A stretch of 64,000 nt of DNA from Phoronis australis (taxonomy: Eukaryota > Animalia > Phoronida). Both the position numbers and the translations under genes were made by a program. Below the pieces are notes generated by a model. That model was given only the letters and a program-made list of their open reading frames with translations. It was not told the origin of the DNA and searched no databases. The stretch spans positions 889,822 to 953,821 of the forward strand of contig NMRA01000100.1 of the NCBI GenBank assembly GCA_002633005.1, read 5' to 3'. This document shows, in pieces, positions 61,349 through 61,671 of this stretch (position 1 is its first letter; every line of letters starts with the position of its first letter).

Positions 61349-61436
61349 AGCTGACCGCCAAGGAGGGCTTACTACTGTGGTGCCAACGTAAGACGGCGCC
61401 ATACAAGAACGTTAATGTACAAAACTTCCATATAAG
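61349..61436 (+). CDS. ACTN: Alpha-actinin exon 4a (start of CH2), putative mutually exclusive
   Basis: ttgcag|AG...AG|gtaaca, 88 nt. Encodes (E)[28 protein letters not shown](S). Confidence 0.93.
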
Positions 61437-61583
61437 GTAACACGGTCTCATGTCGACTGAGGTGGTGTGGCCTACTAATGTCTTTGTAGTCGCTTCTTAA
61501 CGTCTACGTGCACTGCATGTTGGTCGCTACGGCGACTGTCTCCTTTCACTTTGTGTCTGTTTTGCTACCGTTTTGTTTTACAG

Positions 61584-61671
61584 AGCTGTCCGCTAAGGAG
61601 GGACTTCTCTTATGGTGCCAACGTAAAACACAACCTTATCGGAATGTTAACGTTAATAATTTCCACTTGAG
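61584..61671 (+). CDS. ACTN: Alpha-actinin exon 4b (paralogous alternative to 4a)
   Basis: ttacag|AG...AG|gtaata, 88 nt, same phases as 4a. Encodes (E)[28 protein letters not shown](S). Confidence 0.92.

Follow-up and report, generated by a model that had tools for sequence, protein, structure and literature searches.

Tandem CH2 exons used one at a time in an alpha-actinin gene of Phoronis australis

Swapping of homologous exons is established for alpha-actinin. The pairs 8a/8b and 19a/19b are already in print (PMC4494069, PMC4550062, PMC9741552, PMC4465641), and the sections consulted place 8a/8b in human ACTN2 and ACTN4, in Drosophila Actn and in C. elegans atn-1 (PMC4494069). As far as these sections go, 8a/8b resembles the exons 4a and 4b described here in gene family, in the tandem arrangement of homologous actin-binding-domain exons, in either-or use and in ancientness. 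In contrast, 8a/8b sits at the end of CH2, whereas 4a/4b corresponds to vertebrate exon 5 at the start of CH2, with the PIP2 loop, and a likely second pair corresponds to exon 6. In the 19a/19b pair, as described in the excerpt consulted (PMC4550062), the choice of exon tunes one gene for muscle or non-muscle cells, a theme that 4a/4b would share. The 19a/19b pair affects the calcium-binding EF-hand domain and is chordate-specific, while 4a/4b affects the CH2 lipid loop of a protostome. Mapping neither to the CH2 end nor to EF-hand 1, 4a/4b belongs to neither class. The mechanism proposed below for 4a/4b, with a branch point far from its acceptor and close to the donor of the preceding exon, is the one reported for exon 19 (Southby 1999, as cited in the excerpt of PMC7969005). 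Domain limits of alpha-actinin are also given in the parts consulted of PMC4545552 and PMC8329775.

A regulatory parallel is the unc-60 switch of C. elegans, also in the gene of an actin-binding protein, where ASD-2 (the QKI/How orthologue) and SUP-12 use a CUAAC at the branch site and a nearby UGUGUG (excerpts of PMC3469465 and PMC3875643). The unc-60 elements are juxtaposed, serve an exon series and were demonstrated by mutation and binding, whereas at 4a/4b we have motifs only, about 50 nt apart. Searches of the main texts of open-access papers turned up no account of alpha-actinin exon 5 as a pair. A survey of about 32 invertebrate genomes by Lek et al. 2010 (Mol Biol Evol 27:773) reportedly observed frequent duplications of actin-binding-domain exons and may include the exon-5 pair. 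The pair analysed here is real and well supported, but it is a known type of switch.

The exon pair, its age and its relatives

The window, meaning the whole stretch of 64,000 nt that was analysed (Phoronis australis, contig NMRA01000100.1), contains an alpha-actinin gene on the + strand. The gene is known here from its 5' part only, the remainder lying past the window end (64000). The coding part of exon 1 (39077-39163, +) runs from the ATG to a GT donor, and its 3' end agrees with the loose ends that RNA reads show ahead of exon 2. Exon 2 (59604-59838, +) is a fusion of vertebrate exons 2 and 3, encodes CH1 (Pfam CH, E 4.7e-12) and has an RNA joint to exon 3 (60260-60346, +), the equivalent of vertebrate exon 4, which is itself joined to both 4a and 4b. 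The N-terminal part (39077-39163 and 59604-59838) diverges from an otherwise constant animal consensus. The best identity of exon 2 was 90-91% among 3415 matches, no match was found with exon 1 as a protein query, and a search of the ESM Atlas returned CH clusters only.

About 30 kb upstream, on the same strand, lies a DCAF5 (WDR22) gene (226-8918, +). Human DCAF5 presumably adjoins ACTN1 on 14q24, which would make the linkage of DCAF5 and alpha-actinin an old microsynteny. Twenty DCAF5 matches were looked up, 17 of them named, and all 17 were bilaterian. The DCAF5 tree, which held no cnidarian, placed the window sequence with lophotrochozoans (support 89/90) and outside the molluscs; in a quick, unfinished actinin tree based on 19% of columns it grouped with ecdysozoans. 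A weak match to an RT RNase H-like family at 21432-21707 (-), with an E of 0.004 below the cut-off, is probably a retroelement remnant.

The first-pass annotation had described two exons of 88 nt, 147 nt apart, with the same phase and intact splice sites. This was confirmed, each exon being preceded by AG and followed by GTAA. Exon 4a (61349-61436, +) is the major form and carries T-A-K-Q-I at five variable positions. Exon 4b (61584-61671, +) is a minor, sample-dependent form with S-Q-R-N-L. The earlier divergence figures also proved exact: the exons differ at 26/88 nt, and of the 28 full codons 14 are changed synonymously, 5 are replaced (T/S, A/Q, K/R, Q/N, I/L) and 9 are identical. Third positions differ at 17/28, and the means against exons from other phyla are 16.3 and 17.8. 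As the differences within the pair equal those between phyla, synonymous change has reached saturation, which makes this an old pair. Saturation, together with a pS of 0.92 against a pN of 0.14, supports the original view of an old duplication under purifying selection. Equal length and phase, adjacency and intact splice sites are the marks of tandem homologous exons, and 4a and 4b have all of them. The unit of 4a, intron and 4b sits on a single DNA contig (X1, 61227-61709). U12-type sites were not found on 4a or 4b, both donors being GTAA and both acceptors CAG; U2/U12 incompatibility as the basis of exclusion is not supported, since neither copy has U12-type bounds.

A feature overlooked by the first-pass annotation is that the block 60097-61744 reappears, 96.7% identical, at 61746-63407 (+), separated from it by a single N at 61745 and including exact copies of 4a (63012-63099) and 4b (63247-63334). 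This second block is the other haplotype, not a true repeat. Contigs of X1 and X4 that begin at 61746 have upstream of them the sequence upstream of 60097, no listed contig of X1 or X4 spans the N, and intronic RNA reads bear second-block alleles (e.g., 5/5 X7 reads at 60505, 60518 and 60535). A true tandem repeat of exons 3-4a-4b was rejected because contig flanks and RNA alleles fit a haplotype. The 39 sites that distinguish the haplotypes all lie in 60097-61144; 61145-61744 is the same in both, and exons 3, 4a and 4b show 0 differences. The invariant stretch suggests constraint on the introns around the pair, as far as linked sites, which are not independent, can indicate this; shared ancestry of both haplotypes rather than selection could also explain it. 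Two SNPs inside the invariant block were seen in reads (61290 and 61386). Another N-bounded repeat (226-1435 and 1604-2813, 95.8% identical) doubles a DCAF5 exon and is probably the same allele artefact.

Relatives were surveyed among metagenome loci, the best 80 of at least 513. Exon 5 was doubled, with good splice sites on both copies, in 4/80 of these best loci (L005, L036, L039 and L045); many of the others were transcripts or did not extend far enough to reveal a second copy. L039 and L045 are near-identical, L005 has its copies in reversed order, and L036, which clusters with annelids, has exon 6 doubled as well. Together with exon-6 pairs of molluscs and Owenia, these loci have the same exons doubled as 4a/4b and the next exon. 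The isoform sets retrieved from named animals (mollusc, nemertean, acoel, spider and Owenia) offer no alternative for exon 5. The protein segment of 4a is identical to that of the a copy in L036, L039 and L045. The combination T-A-K-Q-I, common to the a copies of the duplicated genes, was found in 4/84 exons of the best 80 of at least 513 loci, all in duplicated genes, and in 0/163 full-length proteins. Its confinement to duplicated genes fits one origin, while the opposite order of the copies in L005 and the small size of the exon would be compatible with repeated origin. Exon distances were used rather than an exon tree, given 28 codons with saturated third positions, and by such distances a single ancient duplication looks the same as several duplications in which one copy stayed conserved. 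Other duplications were also seen: L048:11069-12860, a locus that groups near chordates, has three copies of the exon-8 equivalent; L015:2122-3330, chordate-like and probably from a tunicate, has exons 6 and 8 both doubled; and two Tubulanus alpha-actinin models (P0002, P0396) contain the entire actin-binding domain twice, either as a true tandem domain or as a gene-model error.

Use of the pair and of the following exon in RNA

RNA evidence was taken from three raw-read runs of one study (X6, X7 and X8; about 18-19% of each run was read) and from X5 contigs, all mapped to 59500-61744. X1, X4, X8 and X6 were mapped to 61150-61900, and a joint was listed only if at least 3 reads from 2 starts supported it. 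X4 is labelled "DNA?" yet contains spliced contigs. Exon 3 was joined to 4a by 43, 49 and 39 reads in X6, X7 and X8, and to 4b by 18, 11 and 0 reads. Loose ends into the next exon followed 4a in 60, 48 and 57 reads of these runs, and 4b in 21 and 16 reads of X6 and X7, with none listed for X8. Contigs of X5 and X4 contained 4a only. Each of the two exons is spliced to both flanking exons in X6 and X7. At the threshold of 3 reads and 2 starts, no 4a-4b joint was listed in six runs, as compared with 131 and 29 reads on the upstream joints, and no splicing of the 147-nt intron between them (61437-61583, +) was listed in the RNA runs. These data confirm that 4a and 4b are both used, one at a time. 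The first-pass annotation had proposed mutual exclusion with both exons spliced in, and its own check, the search for a 4a-4b joint, came out in its favour.

The share of 4b was 30% in X6, 18% in X7 and 0% in X8. Counted by read starts, X6 differed from X8 (14/40 vs 0/25, P = 0.0005), as did X7 (P = 0.009), and the difference between X6 and X7 was not significant. X8 is of a different genotype, with a synonymous G at 61386 in 78/78 reads, and X6 and X7 share alleles. The X8 genotype being distinct, the difference in 4b use between samples could be genetic rather than tissue-based; the two effects are confounded in these runs. Intronic RNA depth was raised near 4a and in the 4a-4b intron (61000-61583; 5-16 in X6), and those X8 reads that cover 4b are unspliced at its acceptor; both reflect slow or detained splicing around the pair. 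A second donor-like sequence, AG/GTAATAC, lies 22 nt past the 4b donor (61672-61699). A few reads of X6, X7 and X8 extend to about 61693 and stop at a long G run, where read trimming could be the explanation.

The next exon, equivalent to vertebrate exon 6, lies outside the window. RNA loose ends revealed two forms that differ at 6/30 nt, all six differences being synonymous by reading over the 30 nt covered of each form. After 4a the forms are mixed (agreement 0.91-0.93), and two branch contigs follow it, with depths of 348 and 234 in X5 and of 147 and 73 in X4. After 4b one form dominates (agreement 0.96-0.98). Both X5 branch contigs after 4a measure 138 nt, or 30+78+30 with 31-mers, as predicted for a difference that extends over one 79-nt exon. 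In other loci exon 6 was 79 nt long in 30/65 AG-preceded matches, and 31 lacked a donor at the tested lengths. After 4b the T form accounts for about 90% and 80%, and after 4a for about 35% and 55% (X6 and X7, respectively), where the figures are back-calculated from consensus agreement and are estimates, not counts. From these estimated shares, coupling between 4b and the next exon had a P of about 1e-5 in X6 and of 0.08 in X7. Exon-6 pairs occur in L014, L015, L036 and L046 among the best 80 of at least 513 relatives, and also among isoform models of named molluscs and of Owenia. The two forms probably come from a second duplicated exon pair, chosen in partial coupling with 4a/4b. Such coupling may be co-regulation in one cell type and not a direct link.

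Candidate elements for exclusion and choice

The first-pass annotation stated that inclusion of both exons or of neither shifts the frame. The sequence agrees: translation across a 4a-4b join would end 11 nt past the start of 4b, and loss of both exons would put what follows out of frame, so that nonsense decay would serve as a backstop. The intron between the exons contains TACTAAT, a candidate distant branch point; the branch A (61478) would lie 42 nt past the donor of 4a. A TAAC half-site follows 18 nt on, and the two would form a bipartite QKI-type element (61473-61501, +). TACTAAT is the sole CTRAY match in the 147-nt intron, and TACTAAY is expected 0.007 times per 147 nt. An AG occurs 10 nt past it and is followed by an AG-free zone of 92 nt up to the 4b acceptor. 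Gaps of at least 92 nt were found once among 1150 AG gaps of intron 1, and the length was exceeded at 2/41 exon-5 acceptors in other loci. A TTAAC at +64 is a second, weaker branch-point candidate. In the known cases described in the excerpts consulted, two exons are not included together when the branch point lies within about 50 nt of the donor (PMC7969005, PMC5740500). At 42 nt, the candidate would fall under this steric limit and block joining of 4a to 4b, with nonsense decay behind it. This would place 4a/4b with sterically enforced pairs of the alpha-tropomyosin, ACTN1 exon 19 and OGDH type. The other duplicated loci have introns of 269-894 nt, with CTRAY matches close to the acceptor; thus steric exclusion is not general and would be specific to this lineage. 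Steric blocking and nonsense decay are indistinguishable by steady-state reads, and from the motifs we infer the exclusion step as probable. We also looked for inverted repeats suited to docking/selector pairing in the introns within the window. Only short, chance-like pairs were found, with unremarkable fold z-scores of -0.91 and +0.72, and exclusion by RNA pairing of the Dscam type found no support there.

Further motifs flank the pair. ACTAAC 16 nt before 4a (61333-61338, +) is likely the 4a branch point and is a candidate STAR/QKI repressor site. About 55 nt upstream of it lies a UG repeat of three overlapping TGTGTG (61271-61280, +), a candidate site of SUP-12/RBM24 or CELF type. A bipartite ACTAAC-N8-TAAT 8 nt past the 4b donor (61679-61696, +) is a candidate STAR/QKI activator site; it is no branch point because it lies too near that donor. 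The elements at 61474 and 61679 fit the bipartite QKI consensus NACUAAY-N1-20-UAAY as given in the section consulted (PMC3875643). Within the 424 invariant intron nt, ACTAAY occurs three times (61333, 61474 and 61679), a number reached in 8/3000 shuffles, and bipartite elements occur twice (61474 and 61679), reached in 3/3000; the motifs were picked post hoc out of six tried, and two of the three ACTAAY may be plain branch points. The + strand of the window holds 6 distinct bipartite elements in all. Intron 1 is 20.4 kb long and has a bipartite STAR element 40 nt past its donor (39203). A TGCATG of RBFOX type (61514-61519, +) is not above chance alone (P = 0.2), and around the pair neither RBFOX nor MBNL motifs exceeded chance. 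STAR elements were not found around the pairs in L005, L036, L039 and L045.

According to the excerpts consulted (PMC3875643, PMC3469465), ASD-2 bound to CUAAC and SUP-12 bound to UGUGUG close to a branch site keep an acceptor repressed in C. elegans muscle, and flies and fish need the orthologous proteins for muscle. A STAR protein bound to the branch-site ACTAAC of 4a, and aided by the UG repeat, would repress 4a in a similar way. STAR binding downstream of an exon generally promotes its inclusion, and a STAR protein on the element just past 4b would favour 4b. This predicts that 4a is off and 4b is on in STAR-rich cells, probably muscle. Hence the intronic motifs hint that 4b may be the muscle form, and the direction proposed by the first-pass annotation may hold for another reason. 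Taken as a whole, we consider it probable that either 4a or 4b is used, that the next exon is likely a second, partly coupled pair, and that a branch point near the 4a donor and nonsense decay likely keep the exclusion, with STAR/QKI proteins predicted to switch certain cells, probably muscle, to 4b.

Consequences for the protein and alternative readings

The assignment of the pair to vertebrate exon 5 and to a CH2 segment held: the exons map to ACTN2 residues of about 150-178 (7ank numbering) and overlap the mapped PIP2 site. The swaps fall on residues 152, 166, 169, 174 and 178 in the same numbering, the K/R swap being at 169. The first CH2 helix is the same in both forms, and 4/5 swaps lie within 165-181. 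In the part of PMC4259493 consulted, the PIP2 loop is mapped to 165-181, and R163, R169 and R192 form the PIP2 platform of ACTN2. R192, counted from aligned sequences, is encoded in the next, likely also doubled, exon. Swaps in the PIP2 loop would make the isoforms differ modestly in lipid or actin regulation, with K to R retaining the charge. A large PIP2 effect is unlikely for 4a/4b, since K/R is no muscle marker in invertebrates and the diagnostic S, Q and N of 4b match a sponge actinin (Amphimedon P0158, 96% over the match), to which 4b is closest. Whereas 4b keeps R at 169, the b copies in L036 (annelid-like), L039 and L045 have D or N there and E at 166, and judged by these residues a large effect is more plausible for them than for 4b.

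The first-pass annotation had gone further and read the locus as one gene that mimics the vertebrate split, 4a being the non-muscle form like ACTN1/4 and 4b, via K169R, the muscle form like ACTN2/3. Parts of this stand up, as ACTN1 and ACTN4 indeed have K and ACTN3 has R, residue 169 is an arginine of the PIP2 platform, and the muscle-type motifs favour 4b. However, the claim that K/R marks non-muscle versus muscle actinin failed. Insect isoform pairs differ at exon 8 only and have the K segment in both forms, although the single fly alpha-actinin gene makes muscle isoforms (excerpt of PMC4550062). Among 163 full-length actinins, a redundant set, residue 169 is K in 137, R in 25 and N in 1, and 13 of those with R are invertebrate, from 6 genera; R is also found in L028, which has a single copy of the exon. 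The b copies of other lineages carry D or N at this position, and neither A-to-Q nor Q-to-N in 4b is a vertebrate-muscle feature. A copy of the vertebrate split is therefore quite improbable. The pair could also be exclusive with 4b tracking neurons, glia, germ line, life stage or genotype, in which case the swaps would be nearly neutral and kept by general CH2 constraint. All five 4b residues do occur at the same positions in actinins of other animals, K to R is conservative, and the actinin nearest to 4b comes from a sponge, an animal without muscle. Moreover, X8, the run without spliced 4b, is of another genotype, and the other duplicated loci lack STAR motifs. We nevertheless regard this reading as somewhat unlikely. 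The splice sites have stayed intact although synonymous change is saturated, and 4b makes up 18-30% in two samples, all of which points to long maintenance. Rare bipartite STAR elements also lie on either side of 4b, and the exchange of a basic PIP2 residue for D or N plus an added E in the b copies of L036 and L039/L045 looks functional.

The remaining alternative concerns the next exon, whose forms could be alleles or products of a second gene, with the coupling as allele-specific use of 4b. The copies lie outside the window and are known from RNA, not seen in DNA, and X6 and X7 have common alleles, unlike X8. Against this, the forms diverge by 20%, while exons 3, 4a and 4b show 0 differences between haplotypes. 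In 5/5 runs with spliced sequence, 4a was followed by mixed loose ends or by two branch contigs, the bubble length suits one exon, and exon-6 pairs are common among relatives. Such an origin of the two forms is highly improbable. Our preferred reading thus remains that of two either-or exon pairs with partly coupled choice and a predicted STAR/QKI switch towards 4b.

A wider and more speculative proposal would be an ancient bilaterian switch in which coupled exons 5 and 6 rebuild the PIP2 platform of CH2, with R163, R169 and R192 split over both, set by STAR-family muscle splicing factors and with loss of the charge at 169 in some annelid-like b exons. We consider this unlikely. If true, the annelid-like b exon would represent a natural lipid-insensitive actinin, and the exon-5 half of the switch would have disappeared from vertebrates, insects and molluscs.

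The general picture is unchanged, in that alpha-actinin repeatedly duplicates exons of its actin-binding head. To this the locus adds an RNA-validated invertebrate case of two adjacent either-or exon pairs with coupled choice, the second pair and the coupling being likely. The compact 147-nt intron offers candidate branch-point and STAR elements that can be tested. PIP2 control of alpha-actinin has so far been studied with engineered mutants, to go by the excerpt of PMC4259493. Natural exon variants at PIP2 residues, present in several phyla, are ready test pairs for the tuning of lipid binding and actin cross-linking.
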